From: an uncultured virus (IMG/VR IMGVR_UViG_3300031758_000013)
Lineage: Duplodnaviria > Heunggongvirae > Uroviricota > Caudoviricetes
Reading direction: 5' to 3' (one strand)
Length of the DNA: 64,000 nt
IMG/VR virus record: IMGVR_UViG_3300031758_000013
The translations under genes were made by a program, and so were the position numbers. The notes beneath the pieces were generated by a model. That model had not been told where the DNA came from. It made no database searches and saw only the letters and a list, made by a program, of their open reading frames with translations. The number at the start of each line of letters is the position of its first letter. The stretch's first letter is position 1. Shown in pieces: positions 2,434 through 51,661 of this stretch.

Positions 2434-3429
2434 TTATCCACCCGTTCCTATTGCTACAGCATTAAATCCAGTAGTGGTAGCCCCCGAGGAGGCCACACCT
2501 CTTACCCATAATTTACTACCAGCTACTACAGGATAATATGGTGCTTCTGAATTAGTATCTGTACTATCTTGCCAAGCTTCATTTGAAGTCATAAATGAGT
2601 ACATCGTCCCGTTAATAATTTGCTTATTATTATCATCACCTGCTGGTGACCAAGCCAGTTGAAAATAGTAATGTCCGCCAGTAACAGCAGTCTCGCTGGT
2701 CTGAACTCCTAATTGAAAGTGCCATAGGTCACTTGCTGTCGTGCCCAACTCAACATATGATCCCCAAGCACCGTCTCCAGGAGTAAAAGAAACACCAGCA
2801 GAATTAGTTATAGTTCCAACAGTTTCAGTAAACGTTCCATATGGTACGCCAGCCGCGGGATTTGCTCCGCCAATGGCATCAAATACTATTCGAGGCCCGG
2901 TTCCAAGCGCAGAATCAGCACACTGAACTCTAGCGGCAATAGATGAACCCGATGGTATATATCTGGGAAATCTAAAGCGTCTACCAGAGTTCGAACTGCC
3001 ATTCGTGCCGCCCATTGCTAAATTGGTTACAATGGCGGTATAGTTAGTGCCGCCGGCTGTATCAATACCAATATCTAATAACATATTTCTATTTGTGGCG
3101 GCGGTGGATCCGGAGTGAGTCCAAAAACGCCAATCATATATATTCTGAGTTATATTTGCTGCTGCAGAAATTTGTTGCCACGATCCTTCATTATTATTGA
3201 TACCCACAACCACGGCGAGGCCAACGTTAGATCCAGTAGTACCCCAGTTATTATATCTAAACGTATAAGCAGGCACTAGTCCAACAGTATCACTCCAAGC
3301 CGCTTTCCATGCGCCGGTATCTTTCCAATAAACTGGTCTATCATCCCATGTGGCACCATTCCACACTTTAGCAGTTCTCCACTGCCAATCAGAACCATCC
3401 CATACTTTTACAAATCCACCGTATGTCAT
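2434..3429 (-). CDS. Fibre-tip adhesin-like protein with N-terminal W[DN]GxxW module
   Basis: N-terminus VKVWDGSDWQWRTAKVWNGATWDD; body paralogous to 1591..2433. Confidence 0.6.
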   Translation of the reverse strand: MTYGGFVKVWDGSDWQWRTAKVWNGATWDDRPVYWKDTGAWKAAWSDTVGLVPAYTFRYNNWGTTGSNVGLAVVVGINNNEGSWQQISAAANITQNIYDWRFWTHSGSTAATNRNMLLDIGIDTAGGTNYTAIVTNLAMGGTNGSSNSGRRFRFPRYIPSGSSIAARVQCADSALGTGPRIVFDAIGGANPAAGVPYGTFTETVGTITNSAGVSFTPGDGAWGSYVELGTTASDLWHFQLGVQTSETAVTGGHYYFQLAWSPAGDDNNKQIINGTMYSFMTSNEAWQDSTDTNSEAPYYPVVAGSKLWVRGVASSGATTTGFNAVAIGTGG

Positions 3430-46886: not shown

Positions 46887-47627
46887 TTATCCAACTCTGT
46901 AGCTAAAAACATTAGGATTTAATTTTCCTACTGCTACATAAATTGAATCTAGGAATGATTGATCTGTGTATTGATATCCAAGATCATTCATAAACTGTTG
47001 TTGCTCAGGGCTGTTAAACCTTTCTGCAATAATTACTGGTTTATACTTTTCAATAGTGGCTTTAGCGCCCTCAAGAACTCCTTGCTCAAATCCTTCTACA
47101 TCGAGTGCAATAAGATCACATTCGGCCAAATTTAAAGAATCGATTGTCATCATAGGAATATTAAACTGCTCAGATGGCGGTTGAAGAATATTCATTCCGA
47201 TGTTTAAATCATTAGTACCAGGTCCTTCTTGAGGAACACGATATAAACCAACAATACCATGGCCATGACCAAGAGCTGCATTCAGCTTAATAACGTGATC
47301 GTATGGATTGTTGTTCACCATGCATGTGAATGCAACTGGTTCTGGTTCAAAAGCAAAAACGTGCTTGAATCGCTTAGCATACAGTCTAGCATACATTCCA
47401 CAGTTTGTACCTGCGGTTACTACTGTACCATAATTAGTAATGTGTGTAAAATACTTGTGTACGTGATGATTGTTCCAGTGTTCAATTACTGATTCAAAGC
47501 ACACTTTATCTTCTTTGATCCAGTACCAATTGGTTTCACCTTCAATCTCAACATCACGAATCTCTATATTAGCAAACATAATTAAATCACTGATTTTGCT
47601 GAAAGATATTTTGCTCCTCCATCCCAT
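46887..47627 (-). CDS. FkbM-family methyltransferase
   Basis: VTAGTNCGMY..AFEPEP..TIDSLNL..DLIALDVEGFEQGVLEGA. Confidence 0.8.
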   Translation of the reverse strand: MGWRSKISFSKISDLIMFANIEIRDVEIEGETNWYWIKEDKVCFESVIEHWNNHHVHKYFTHITNYGTVVTAGTNCGMYARLYAKRFKHVFAFEPEPVAFTCMVNNNPYDHVIKLNAALGHGHGIVGLYRVPQEGPGTNDLNIGMNILQPPSEQFNIPMMTIDSLNLAECDLIALDVEGFEQGVLEGAKATIEKYKPVIIAERFNSPEQQQFMNDLGYQYTDQSFLDSIYVAVGKLNPNVFSYRVG

Positions 47628-48466
47628 GGCATAAATGGGATGTCAGTATATTCAATTGTTCGATTTTCTTCAATTTGAGGAATAAAAACATCTCGAATAT
47701 ACTTCTCATTGTCAATACCAAAAATCTGATTAGAGTAAGCAATGAGCCAATTCTTTGTTTCACCGATCTTTAGCATAATTTCATCGCGAAGTTCAAGTGG
47801 CATTTCAGTAAATGACCAAGTGCCAATCATTAGATCTGCATTGCACAGATCATTCACATCAGAAGTATGCACGATGTTGGTATGACCTAGTTCATTGTGA
47901 TACCACTTCTGAATTGCTCCAACTTCAGCAAAATCATAAATGATATACTTACCCTTAAATCCAAGCTTGTAGACGATATCGGCCATGTCGCCAATGCCAC
48001 CACCAAGTTCTACAATTGTATCGAGCTTTTCTAGTGACTCTGGTGTCCATCCATTAATTAGAAGATGAGCCATATGCTGAACACGATTCATTGTTGTTGT
48101 AAAATCTTCAAATAGATTATACATACCACGATCTTGCTCAGTGATACCAATATCAGGATCTTCAAGAGCATAACGAACCTTTGCGTTTTCCTTCCACTGA
48201 AGGACTGCAGCAAAGTAATCAAGGAACCGAGCACGAGTCATAAAAGGAACTGACATCACAGAAGCCCAGACTTTGAATCTTTCCTTAGGAAGATTTTTAA
48301 AGTCTTCAGCAAACACTTCACACATTACAGTCCAGTAATTATCTTTACCGGCCTGCTTAGCGGCGAGCATTTTTTCAAATAGATGTTTTGAAGAAGCTAA
48401 AGGTGCCGGAGCAGTCATTGCCGGATTCGCTGGTTCAGTAGAGTAACGAAAATATTCAGACATCAA
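47582..48466 (-). CDS. Putative sugar O-methyltransferase
   Basis: IVELGGGIG..YIIYDF..Q..DLMIGTWSFTEMP. Confidence 0.65.
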   Translation of the reverse strand: MMSEYFRYSTEPANPAMTAPAPLASSKHLFEKMLAAKQAGKDNYWTVMCEVFAEDFKNLPKERFKVWASVMSVPFMTRARFLDYFAAVLQWKENAKVRYALEDPDIGITEQDRGMYNLFEDFTTTMNRVQHMAHLLINGWTPESLEKLDTIVELGGGIGDMADIVYKLGFKGKYIIYDFAEVGAIQKWYHNELGHTNIVHTSDVNDLCNADLMIGTWSFTEMPLELRDEIMLKIGETKNWLIAYSNQIFGIDNEKYIRDVFIPQIEENRTIEYTDIPFMPWDGGAKYLSAKSVI

Positions 48467-49041
48467 TCACCTGCAAATTTATCTTTCAGTATCTTACGAC
48501 ATTTAAATGCATCATAATGAAAGAATGGTTTATATTTAGATAACTTTTTATATATGCTTGGCCAAAGTACCGTATCTTCAATCTTCTTATTCCAGTGACT
48601 AAAGAAACCAAGAATATCATTCAGAATAATAATAGTTTCAATAGATATTTGACGCCGCAAGTATTGTTTAAGTAAATATGGATGTTGTCCATTCTTTACA
48701 ATAACATTAGTATCAAAATCTGTCAACAACTTATTTAGATCTTGCTCAAAAATATAAGTCAAAGACTGTTGCCGCATGAGCCATTCAGAATAAACTTTCT
48801 CTGAATCATCGTTAAAGAGATCACCAACCCACTTGAGATCACCATCTACAAAATTGGCTACTAGATATTTAAGTGGATCTTTATGCTTGGATAGTTTATA
48901 GAATTGATACTTATCTTTGCGAGTCTCAAAGCTAGTTTGGCTTGCACCGATTTTGCCGTTGTACTTGATATAATCATAATTGTCTGTAGTAAAATGGTTC
49001 TTAACAGCAAGAAAAGTCTTATAACTCTCGAACGGTGTCAT
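48463..49041 (-). CDS. gp59: Helicase loader gp59
   Basis: YKTFLAVKNHFT..YDYIKYNGK..RKDKYQF.KL..ISIETI. Confidence 0.9.
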   Translation of the reverse strand: MTPFESYKTFLAVKNHFTTDNYDYIKYNGKIGASQTSFETRKDKYQFYKLSKHKDPLKYLVANFVDGDLKWVGDLFNDDSEKVYSEWLMRQQSLTYIFEQDLNKLLTDFDTNVIVKNGQHPYLLKQYLRRQISIETIIILNDILGFFSHWNKKIEDTVLWPSIYKKLSKYKPFFHYDAFKCRKILKDKFAGD

Positions 49042-50118: not shown

Positions 50119-50126
50119 TATTTATA
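50119..50126 (-). promoter_or_regulatory. T4-type late promoter for the structured leader and SleB gene
   Basis: Exact TATAAATA. Confidence 0.7.
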
Positions 50127-50137
50127 CCATATATTAA

Positions 50138-50303
50138 GTTGCCGGATTCTGTTTCGAGGCTCCGGCGGGCCCAAGAGGTCATGCCGCTAGGCGGATACCT
50201 ACAACGCTATCGTTATCGTTAGCATTTGTGTTTAATGGCAACTTTGCCAAGCAATCAGTCTCGAACCGCCCTATTCCGTCCCAGTCGATCCTATCTCACC
50301 CCC
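50138..50303 (-). ncRNA. ssrA: Two-piece (permuted) tmRNA, coding piece; tag (A)ANDNDSVVGIRLAA
   Basis: 5' GGGGGTGAGATAGGATCGAC; tag ORF 50223..50179 ending LAA-TGA; 3' GCCGGA..AACAGAA..TCCGGC. The 3' end is approximate. Confidence 0.92.
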
Positions 50304-50716
50304 GTCATAAATGATCTTGTCTTTCGACCTTGACCTTTTGCCCAACCTTCAGGAGGAATCTGACCTTCTCTTAAACAACATTTCTGAGTTGGATCTTCTG
50401 GATTATGAAACCATCTTAATCCACCAGTTCCAGTTGGCTTAAACTCTCCGGGCTTTGGTCCACGCCTTGCAGTTTTGTTAGCGTTTCCTTTAGCCGCGCC
50501 TCGTTTGCCAGCCTCACTTAGCATTTCCTTAACAAGTTGTTCTTTACTTATTAAGCCAGAAAGTCCCAACCATGCTAGTCGATCTTCCCATCTGCCATGT
50601 TGTTCGTAGAGAATTCTATGAGCTTCTGCATGTTCTTCAACAGTTAACTCAATCAAATTCTCTGGGTCATCAGTTCCACCCAAATACTTAGGCACTTTAT
50701 GATGAATATGCTTCAC
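50291..50716 (-). CDS. HNH homing endonuclease inside the tmRNA intervening segment
   Basis: HIHHKVPKYLGGTDDPENLIELTVEEHAEAH (HNH); C-terminal W.HN..PEGW.KG motif; GTG start with AAGGAG SD. Confidence 0.85.
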   Translation of the reverse strand: MKHIHHKVPKYLGGTDDPENLIELTVEEHAEAHRILYEQHGRWEDRLAWLGLSGLISKEQLVKEMLSEAGKRGAAKGNANKTARRGPKPGEFKPTGTGGLRWFHNPEDPTQKCCLREGQIPPEGWAKGQGRKTRSFMTGVR

Positions 50717-50723
50717 TTAATCT

Positions 50724-50753
50724 CTCCTTCCTAGTTATTTATAAAACTAGGAT
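50724..50753 (-). promoter_or_regulatory. Late promoter TATAAATA (50743-50736) within a hairpin overlapping the HNH RBS
   Basis: TCCTAGTT-TTATAAAT-AACTAGGA, then AGGAGAGATTAA GTG. Confidence 0.75.
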
Positions 50754-50774
50754 CTTAAAGACTAAGATCACTTA

Positions 50775-50840
50775 TGGTGGAGGTGACGGGTACTGCCCCC
50801 GTGTCCTCAGAACCTTTATCGTTGATTGTCAACAACTGAT
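50775..50840 (-). ncRNA. ssrA: Two-piece tmRNA, acceptor piece
   Basis: GAC-ACGGG-GGCAGTA-CCCGT-CACCTCC-A-CCA. Pairs with GGGGGTG giving G3.U70; 5' ATCAGT is complementary to ACTGAT in the coding piece. The 5' end is approximate. Confidence 0.92.
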
Positions 50841-50846
50841 ATACTA

Positions 50847-50875
50847 TATATAATCTATTCTTGTTTAAATGTCAA
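50847..50875 (-). promoter_or_regulatory. Sigma70-type early promoter of tmRNA
   Basis: TTGACA-17-TATATA. Confidence 0.7.
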
Positions 50876-50878
50876 CAC

Positions 50879-51316
50879 TTAATTGCACCAAGATTGCTTT
50901 GCATCACCAAAATATTCTCTAGCATATCCGTTGGCAATTAACTGAGTTCGAAGACTCTTACCATCAAGAATCATGTCACCCAGCACTCGGCCACCATACT
51001 TATCCCAATCATATAGGATATATCTAACTTTCACCGCTTTGGCCACTAGATCCTTTGTAAAGGCGCTCGCTGCTTGACCCTTTTCATCTTCTGCGGGACA
51101 CTGCGCACGAAAACCTTTTTCTGGAGTATCTACACCATAGATACGAACTGAAATTTGCTTCTTAATTGGTGCTGGCACCCAGAGTGCTTCAATCTGTATA
51201 GTATCACCATCAGTTACTTTAATAACTTTGGCGTTATAAGCTTTACCAACCGGCGTCTTCTGTGCAAACACTGGAGTGGCCAGCGTCAGCGCTGCTAGAA
51301 CAATAAACTTCTTCAT
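50879..51316 (-). CDS. Secreted thermonuclease (SNase-like)
   Basis: Signal peptide; VTDGDTI..VRIYGVDTPE..DKYGGRVLG..LIANGYAREY. Confidence 0.85.
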   Translation of the reverse strand: MKKFIVLAALTLATPVFAQKTPVGKAYNAKVIKVTDGDTIQIEALWVPAPIKKQISVRIYGVDTPEKGFRAQCPAEDEKGQAASAFTKDLVAKAVKVRYILYDWDKYGGRVLGDMILDGKSLRTQLIANGYAREYFGDAKQSWCN

Positions 51317-51325
51317 TTAGTTTCC

Positions 51326-51661
51326 TTAATTGCAGCGAGTTTGCCAATAGACGTAGCGCTCTCCGCGATACCATTCTGTCACCTGCTCGCGTACACAATA
51401 GCGTCGATCGTAACGATTATCAGGCGGATAATACTGATTATCATATTCACGACTACGATCCCGCGAGTCTCGCTGACTGGAACTAATAGTGCCTACTACA
51501 ATTCCGCCAAGAATAGCGCCGCACAACCAGCCACAGCCAGTGTTACGATCGCGATCTCGATGATTGTATTCTCTATGGTGTCGATCGCGATTTTCACGAG
51601 CGATGGCTGGAGTGGCAATAAGCATGCTACCAACAATCATAGATACAATAAACTTCTTCAT
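51326..51661 (-). CDS. Secreted/membrane protein with glycine-zipper segment
   Basis: Signal peptide; GAILGGIVVG. Confidence 0.6.
   Translation of the reverse strand: MKKFIVSMIVGSMLIATPAIARENRDRHHREYNHRDRDRNTGCGWLCGAILGGIVVGTISSSQRDSRDRSREYDNQYYPPDNRYDRRYCVREQVTEWYRGERYVYWQTRCN

Follow-up and report, generated by a model that had tools for sequence, protein, structure and literature searches.

Homing endonucleases are thought to persist in places where they are harmless, such as introns, inteins and intergenic gaps. T4-like phages harbor free-standing homing endonucleases capable of "intronless homing", SegF among them, and in phage Aeh1 the endonuclease MobE splits a ribonucleotide reductase gene. 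Here we describe a predicted HNH endonuclease gene situated within the spacer of a transfer-messenger RNA (tmRNA) gene of the permuted, two-piece alpha type. It is found in a 64,000-nucleotide (64-kb) stretch of an uncultured, T4-like freshwater virus of the Caudoviricetes (IMG/VR record IMGVR_UViG_3300031758_000013; this whole stretch is referred to as the window). Taking the evidence together, and at a probability of roughly 0.8, we read the locus as a functional-looking phage tmRNA gene whose excised spacer has been colonised by a free-standing HNH homing endonuclease cassette.

Phage two-piece tmRNAs have been described from aquatic myophages, namely the OM43 phage Melnitz and the pelagimyophages (PMC9004378). 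As far as the accessible text of that paper goes, the window resembles these phages in being T4-like and aquatic, and in carrying an alpha-type permuted ssrA with a sigma-70-like promoter and an ANDN-type tag. Unlike what is seen in the window, the same portion of text does not contain the words HNH, homing or intervening, and its survey employed ARAGORN, which fails here. Set against those systems, the window contains no glutamine riboswitch at the Rfam gathering score. For LAGLIDADG genes, the accessible text on the 2025 tmRNA database (PMC11915505) names no site but group I introns in the tmRNA T-loop, and what it lists as contents of the permuted spacer is a tRNA-Ala gene and a repetitive element, with no endonuclease gene among them. 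Like those introns, the window places a homing endonuclease gene within a tmRNA gene, in a stretch of RNA that the mature molecule would lack. It differs from them, on the same portion of text, in having no ribozyme, an HNH rather than a LAGLIDADG protein and a site in the spacer of a permuted gene, the removal of which would depend on cellular tRNA-processing enzymes. The accessible part of a further review, "Ends of the line for tmRNA-SmpB" (PMC4131195), holds nothing on a nuclease gene in the permuted spacer. Free-standing homing endonucleases and phage two-piece tmRNAs are each known, and no account of an endonuclease gene in a permuted tmRNA spacer, a harbor combining the two, was found in the full-text literature searched, which covered few subscription journals.

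The free-standing homing endonucleases of T4-like phages are probably the nearest functional analog. As in those systems, an HNH-type gene with its own expression signals lies between conserved sequences, is sporadic among relatives, and has neighboring sequence that may have been co-converted (in L129, L131 and L132, viral contigs discussed below). For the N-terminal half of the protein, matches are also found among T4-like phage and cyanophage genes that carry a homing endonuclease annotation. What sets the window apart is that its harbor is a stable-RNA gene with a product made in two pieces anyway, so that no protein-coding gene is split, and that the end of the open reading frame (ORF) is built from a spacer helix and the tmRNA 5' end. 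A known relative, SWZG_00073 (annotated "homing endonuclease") of Synechococcus phage S-SKS1, is 69% identical over residues 1-68 (72.6% at the DNA level over 212 nucleotides, nt). It shares only the catalytic N-terminal half, and sits between protein genes with no tmRNA called nearby (L121). It was the sole match when the 801-nt region was compared by blastn with deposited phages, and only in its HNH part; it was rejected as a tmRNA-linked case, since the gene is not adjacent to a tmRNA.

The tmRNA gene itself is well supported (Table 1). When the window was scanned with Rfam at gathering thresholds, exactly two matches were returned, both at this locus and on the minus strand: RF04321 (tmRNA_permuted) with 79.9 bits against a threshold of 47, and RF01849 (alpha_tmRNA) with 62.0 bits against a threshold of 50. 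Each covers its full model (positions 1-213 and 1-355, respectively) and renders about 470 nt as an insert. With two models above gathering, the tmRNA call is more than chance. An earlier reading made from the sequence only had suggested the alpha_tmRNA model as a check, to which the RF01849 match gives a positive answer, and its promoter, T-arm, CCA end at 50775, 471-nt segment, GGGGGTG at 50303 and tag were all borne out on the minus strand. The order is permuted, the CCA end of the T-arm/acceptor piece lying upstream of the GGGGGTG that opens the coding piece on the same strand. Between the pieces, GGGGGTG and CACCTCC form an acceptor stem of 7/7 pairs with a G.U at position 3, again as that reading had it. 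G3.U70 is the alanine identity element. The tag frame opens with an alanine resume codon and closes with a stop codon (ANDNDSVVGIRLAA*), on which the RF04321 match ends. The coding piece could be aligned with those of HNH-free relatives and is close to that of L068, which also has a similar tag region. Upstream, the promoter-like region aligns with relatives and the ACA of its first hexamer is invariant; a strict sigma-70 scan did not call TTGACA-17-TATATA because the second hexamer ends in A. ARAGORN, the other check suggested, reported neither a tRNA nor a tmRNA in the 64-kb window. This miss is a limit of the tool with a long spacer and not evidence against the gene, and the usual annotation route for phages would therefore overlook it.

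The two ends of the spacer pair with one another. The resulting closing helix of 11 base pairs stacks directly on the 7-base-pair acceptor stem. When the 704-nt precursor was folded to minimum energy without constraints (z-score -7.5 relative to 20 shuffles), the T-arm and the acceptor stem formed, and so did the closing helix, bridging a loop of 471 nt. The HNH ORF is located in the loop of this conserved helix, its last codons forming one of the helix strands, and it overruns into the coding piece by 13 nt (reached by the final four codons and the TAG), the C-terminus ...MTGVR being tmRNA sequence. The proposal that an ORF of 141 residues fills the spacer is therefore upheld for size and place but not for containment, and with an ORF reaching 13 nt into the mature coding piece the description of the spacer as a "silent" insertion site needs qualifying. 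No self-splicing intron of group I or II was found in the Rfam gathering-threshold scan of the window, and the pairing of the spacer ends amounts to a simple helix; as that reading had inferred, the spacer would then have to be removed by processing of the tRNA type.

Table 1. Features of the tmRNA locus and its HNH gene in the window (positions count from the first letter of the 64,000-nt stretch)
Feature	Position	Strand	Remarks
Promoter-like pair	50847..50875	-	TTGACA 50875-50870, 17-nt gap, TATATA 50852-50847; 5' of the tmRNA gene
tmRNA acceptor piece	50775..50837	-	start is the RF04321 match start, 50837
T-arm	50802-50786	-	ACGGG 50802-50798, GGCAGTA 50797-50791, CCCGT 50790-50786
Acceptor 3' strand CACCTCC	50785-50779	-	followed by ACCA 50778-50775
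Intervening segment (spacer)	50304..50774	-	471 nt; insert in both Rfam alignments; predicted to be removed in maturation
Spacer-closing helix, 5' strand TAAGTGATCTT	50764..50774	-	11 consecutive pairs with 50318-50308
Hairpin CCTAGTT / TTATAAAT / AACTAGG	50730..50751	-	27 nt before the start codon
HNH endonuclease ORF	50291..50716	-	141 amino acids, GTG start; stop TAG 50293-50291 inside the coding piece
Spacer-closing helix, 3' strand AAGATCATTTA	50308..50318	-	codes near the HNH C-terminus; followed by TGAC 50307-50304
tmRNA coding piece	50137..50303	-	begins GGGGGTG; 3' end is the end of the Rfam alpha_tmRNA match
Tag reading frame GCT...TGA	50179..50223	-	encodes ANDNDSVVGIRLAA*

To relate this arrangement to other phage tmRNA genes, viral contigs were scanned with an acceptor-piece pattern, which gave at least 120 loci. 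Among the loci listed, 116 spacers including that of the window were measured; 114 of them are 18-264 nt long, and long spacers occur only in L075 (464 nt) and the window (471 nt). Four HNH-free loci are syntenic with the window on both sides of the tmRNA gene, with 76-79% identity downstream and 69-76% upstream: L068, L049, L022 and L045, with spacers of 67, 82, 95 and 76 nt, respectively. Their alignment to the window breaks at 50773/50774 and resumes at 50308-50312. Nuclease-free alleles with a short spacer had been predicted, and these syntenic relatives are such alleles. Three further syntenic loci (L129, L131, L132) carry the HNH gene, unlike these four, and its presence is in this sense sporadic. 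The ends of short spacers pair as well. Of 88 distinct spacers measuring 40-299 nt, 70 finish with TGAT, and at least 8 consecutive pairs in a fixed register are present in 37, against 5.4% when 5' and 3' ends from different loci are mixed. Since the short, HNH-free spacers share this paired-end design, the cassette sits in the loop of a pre-existing conserved spacer helix. In L030, a 144-nt stretch (approximately 532-675, on the strand opposite to the tmRNA) that is 69% identical to the HNH gene of the window was observed some 830 nt upstream of a nuclease-free tmRNA gene with a 65-nt spacer.

The same nuclease family recurs at this site in other phages. Of 487 candidates from a protein search, 455 are relatives at E <= 1e-5; full-length proteins make up about 47 of the 120 listed, the others sharing only the N-terminal catalytic half, and several full-length relatives end in residues translated from the tmRNA 5' end. 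A profile-guided scan of viral contigs gave 431 relatives, and the best 80 of these 431 loci were inspected for flanking tmRNA halves, the criterion being an upstream 7-mer with ACCA together with a GG-initial 7-mer at the ORF end that pairs with it throughout. Such halves flank 24 of the 27 loci with a full-length match and 5 of the 53 N-terminal-only loci, the latter from one lineage (L165 and relatives); as a control, the test fired at 25 of 2000 random positions. The three full-length exceptions are L142, which is cut at the contig start with the coding piece present, L148 (see below) and L156, which is without a tmRNA. Above the gathering threshold, an Rfam tmRNA match spans the HNH gene in L075, L122, L123, L124, L127, L131, L133, L134, L136, L139, L180 and L165 (L123 being the same contig as L129, and L124 the same as L132), and two more fall just under the 47-bit threshold (L135, 46.0 bits; L159, 45.8 bits). 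L138, L140, L142, L143 and L176 have partial Rfam matches that do not span the HNH gene and lie below gathering, except for one 49-bit match in L138. Hidden Markov models built from pattern-selected tmRNA pieces proved too narrow and missed true cases; the Rfam scans and the pairing test with its control were used instead.

Across 17 distinct HNH-bearing alleles, the spacers measure 464-642 nt, and a closing helix of at least 9 consecutive pairs is found in 14, with differing sequences. The claim that an HNH gene lies in the predicted excised spacer of an alpha-type two-piece tmRNA is thus supported by comparative evidence, from both the short-spacer relatives and the recurrence at this spot. 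The cassette consists of a hairpin with TATAAATA, a ribosome-binding site and the ORF. In the window, TATAAATA (50743-50736) spans the hairpin loop and the 3' stem strand and the ribosome-binding stretch GGAAGGAGAG follows directly. A hairpin is visible at the equivalent position in other cassettes, and the motif TA[TA]AAATA occurs 26-43 nt upstream of the start codon in 13/17 alleles. A role for TATAAATA as a late promoter was dropped and the element is kept as a conserved feature of the cassette: since it is not enriched in the window, that idea rests only on its conserved position in cassettes. A second copy at 50119-50126 on the minus strand lies directly 3' of the tmRNA gene, before a cell-wall hydrolase gene (49868-49290), and in L049, L131, L022 and L129 the second promoter hexamer of the tmRNA gene itself reads TATAAATA.

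Other arrangements of the family were noted as well. L148 has a relative of 195 amino acids (44% identical; ORF 2501-3088) immediately upstream of a complete permuted tmRNA gene (3120-3305) with a spacer of about 11 nt, the ORF end overlapping a promoter-like TTGACA-17-TATAAT of that gene; the same nuclease family can therefore lie beside a tmRNA gene and not only inside one. A second nuclease lineage (L165, L166, L171, L172 and L173; HNH 2501-2965 in L165) is 63% identical over the N-terminal 79 residues and has a different C-terminal half, yet also occupies a tmRNA spacer. Its acceptor stem is that of the window (CACCTCC/GGGGGTG), and in L165 RF04321 scores 52.8 bits across the HNH gene. L143, L144 and L145 carry a relative of 207 amino acids (40% identical) in a 642-nt tmRNA spacer; their T-arm, recognised by eye, is unusual (TTGGC/TTCATCG/CCAA), and Rfam finds only the coding piece, below gathering.

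Given the metagenomic source of the window, and as the tmRNA pieces are conserved repeats across co-occurring phages with many related contigs, a chimeric contig might have placed an unrelated HNH gene between tmRNA fragments. We consider such an assembly artefact very improbable. The same arrangement is present at 99-100% identity in separate viral contigs (L088, L122/L126), DNA contigs of two sequencing runs cross both spacer junctions with 0 differences (X1 record 6, 50241-50819; X9 records 18 and 19), and 17 diverged alleles share the architecture. The runs containing the region are labelled freshwater, lake, aquatic or "fungus metagenome". Contigs of short-spacer relatives occur in the same runs, with loose ends that equal, as judged by eye, L107-type and L080-type spacers. 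A joint from 50307 to 50774 was considered as an HNH-free form of the same strain and rejected, as it belongs to a diverged relative with 8 differences in 67 nt.

Several observations point to mobility of the cassette. The HNH-bearing tmRNAs do not form a single lineage: their T-loops are of GGCAGTA, TTCGA and GCAAAT types, and their acceptor stems differ. Global pairwise identities of spacer and tmRNA pieces were inflated by gaps and uninformative, and high-scoring segment pairs from blastn were used instead. In these, L133 matches, for instance, L138 (81% over the whole 489-nt spacer), L139 (80%) and L140; the matches enter the tmRNA by a few tens of bases only, and outside the tmRNA gene the aligned flank amounts to 0-8 nt. 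Several contig pairs have no DNA in common apart from the cassette. The flanks of the window are shared with L129, L131 and L132 only (2340-3214 nt aligned) and not with L075, L127 or L133. In L129 and L131, which belong to the phage group of the window, the gene is otherwise window-like but contains a different T-arm and acceptor stem. L132 changes over from window-like to L131-like sequence within the 3' strand of its T-stem, where two positions are mispaired as a result, and a patchwork matching the T-arm mosaic is also seen at the 5' end of the coding piece. Mosaicism of this kind would be expected from co-conversion around a homing site, of which the window's own allele shows no tract. 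The L132 T-arm (approximately 2420-2442; ACGGG versus CCCAC, Rfam 55.8 bits) may be either a recombination scar at the homing site or an assembly chimera.

If a 471-nt spacer blocked folding or processing, the insertion could have inactivated the tmRNA, and the nuclease would simply be hosted by a decaying gene. The RF04321 score of 79.9 bits compared with 100.5 bits in an HNH-free relative, the mispaired T-stem of L132 at its mosaic junction and the overlap of the ORF with the coding piece would all fit such a decay. However, a long-insert penalty is expected to explain much of the drop in score, and in the window none of the acceptor stem with its G.U, the T-arm, the CCA, the closing helix and the tag frame is damaged. 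Likewise, 18/18 HNH-bearing alleles (L165 included) keep a tag frame that ends in AA, and the closing helix is maintained with differing sequences though one of its strands codes for protein. Inactivation therefore appears unlikely to us.

The protein encoded in the spacer is related to HNH nucleases by several lines of evidence. It matches PHROG 655 ("homing endonuclease") at E 1.8e-11, and in an alignment of 49 sequences N20, H29 and H33 are invariant, forming a conserved H/N/H motif. A profile of 49 relatives matches the HNH domain of the group II intron maturase 6me0_C (E 1.5e-4) and that of Cas8f-HNH fusions (E 2.5e-3). The AlphaFold model (mean predicted local distance difference test score, pLDDT, 84.4; predicted template modeling score, pTM, 0.52) comprises an N-terminal core of two strands plus a helix, together with three helices, a linker of poor prediction quality and, in residues ~100-135 of the C-terminal half, a beta hairpin. 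The core superposes locally on the colicin E9 DNase (34 columns, root-mean-square deviation 0.7) and on related HNH nucleases too, and the protein fits the beta-beta-alpha-metal HNH type. Compared with twelve homologues, the proportion of nonsynonymous differences (pN 0.19-0.27) is far below that of synonymous differences (pS 0.58-0.80), and the ratio of the corresponding rates (dN/dS) is 0.10-0.31 in the 9/12 comparisons where dS is unsaturated; the gene is therefore kept as a protein under purifying selection.

Purifying selection would also be expected of a domesticated phage factor, serving in tmRNA maturation, host takeover or DNA packaging and placed in the spacer for co-expression with the tmRNA. 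Such a factor would fit the very constant position of the gene and the retention of the upstream hairpin and ribosome-binding site in 17 alleles, and the overlap of the ORF end with the processing site could couple translation to maturation. Yet the gene is absent from the closest syntenic relatives with an intact tmRNA, it makes up the only shared DNA in the contig pairs mentioned above, its N-terminal half is that of a large family whose members are annotated as homing endonucleases of phages, and a related gene lies just outside a complete tmRNA gene in L148. We regard domestication as improbable, slightly more so than inactivation of the tmRNA. The best reading of the HNH family is that of free-standing homing endonucleases specialised on the excised spacer of phage two-piece tmRNA genes.

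We suggest the following scenario for how such a cassette could work. Transcription from the sigma-70-like promoter would yield a precursor whose two pieces are joined by the acceptor stem and the closing helix; an RNase P type cut at 50303/50304 and 3' trimming to the CCA would then discard the nuclease gene without splicing chemistry. Three messages could serve for translation of the nuclease: the precursor, the spacer once released, or a separate transcript initiated at the TATAAATA hairpin, although the lack of TATAAATA enrichment in the window makes this third option weak. In 8/17 alleles, a single base separates the stop codon from the coding piece (a TGA within a conserved TATGAT; L075 included), so that the released spacer would be a complete message. 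In another 8/17, among them that of the window, the stop codon is found 7-40 nt into the coding piece, beyond the predicted RNase P site, and here maturation would strip the stop codon from the message and leave a non-stop nuclease mRNA; in 1/17 it comes earlier. The nuclease would cut HNH-free tmRNA alleles of co-infecting relatives, and recombinational repair would copy the cassette, sometimes with adjacent tmRNA sequence, into the cut alleles. As the spacer is hypervariable, the nuclease would have to recognise conserved tmRNA sequence on one or both sides.

Several points weigh against the homing endonuclease reading. The Pfam HNH match (E 0.001, 19.6 bits) is below the 21.4 cutoff, Foldseek returned 0 matches at E <= 0.001 in the PDB, and nuclease activity, cut site and homing event are predictions from sequence. 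The ORF of the window begins with GTG, where the 12 other cassettes with ORFs read begin with ATG, and it runs past the point where RNase P is predicted to cut. The window contains 7 copies of TATAAATA, with 7.02 expected, so enrichment is lacking, and in the alignments neither the acceptor stem nor the coding piece of the window has an obvious converted tract. Flank identity to the closest HNH-free alleles reaches only 76-79%, so that no recent gain or loss is documented, and repeated loss under vertical descent may still apply within the phage group to which the window belongs. Two contigs from RNA libraries agree exactly with the window over a section of the ORF and the beginning of the coding piece (X16 record 14, 50253-50457; X15 record 11, 50302-50452). 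However, contigs show no RNA ends, strand or level, parts of the region lacking RNA-contig cover carry no weight, and carry-over of DNA is possible, so these contigs say nothing firm on processing.

The gene neighborhood is that of a T4-like myovirus, with a gp59-type helicase loader (best phage matches ~45%, to cyanomyophages), a staphylococcal nuclease (SNase) homologue, a cell-wall hydrolase and a DUF932 protein. The SNase homologue (145 amino acids, 50879-51316, minus strand; Pfam SNase E 5.4e-11) has a hydrophobic, signal-like N-terminus and ends 3 nt before the promoter-like TTGACA of the tmRNA gene; just upstream of it, an ORF of 111 amino acids (51326-51661) has a similar N-terminus (MKKFIV...). 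On the other side, two adjacent methyltransferase-like genes (46887-48466, minus strand; FkbM-type E 2.1e-14, and a weak O-methyltransferase-type match) adjoin the gp59-like helicase loader (48463-49041). ARAGORN and Rfam find no tRNA gene in the 64 kb of this tmRNA-bearing T4-like phage, and a tRNA gene is located just 3' of the tmRNA in the related contigs L127, L133, L143, L165 and L030. None of 185,579 prokaryote species, represented by one genome each, has a full-length HNH homologue (4 partial hits, of at most 77 residues), and none of the 43 deposited phage records that match the HNH protein covers 80% of it. In the nearest virus record, G001, no match to the region was found by Rfam family or DNA.

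These observations suggest a further hiding place for homing endonucleases, namely the part of a stable-RNA precursor that is trimmed away by the cell itself. The association is recurrent and site-specific across many phage tmRNA lineages, and not a single oddity. As ARAGORN missed the gene, counts of phage tmRNAs that were based on this program, such as that of PMC9004378, may under-count genes of this kind. The HNH-bearing alleles also provide a natural test of the spacer length that two-piece tmRNA maturation tolerates, and their nucleases, as a set, probably have recognition sites in strongly conserved tmRNA-gene sequence. More tentatively, and with doubt outweighing confidence, the tmRNA spacer could be a third self-effacing harbor beside introns and inteins, cleared by tRNA-processing enzymes and closely co-evolved with one HNH family, in which, for alleles with the stop codon beyond the processing site, expression of the nuclease would both compete with processing and be policed by the tmRNA that carries it.

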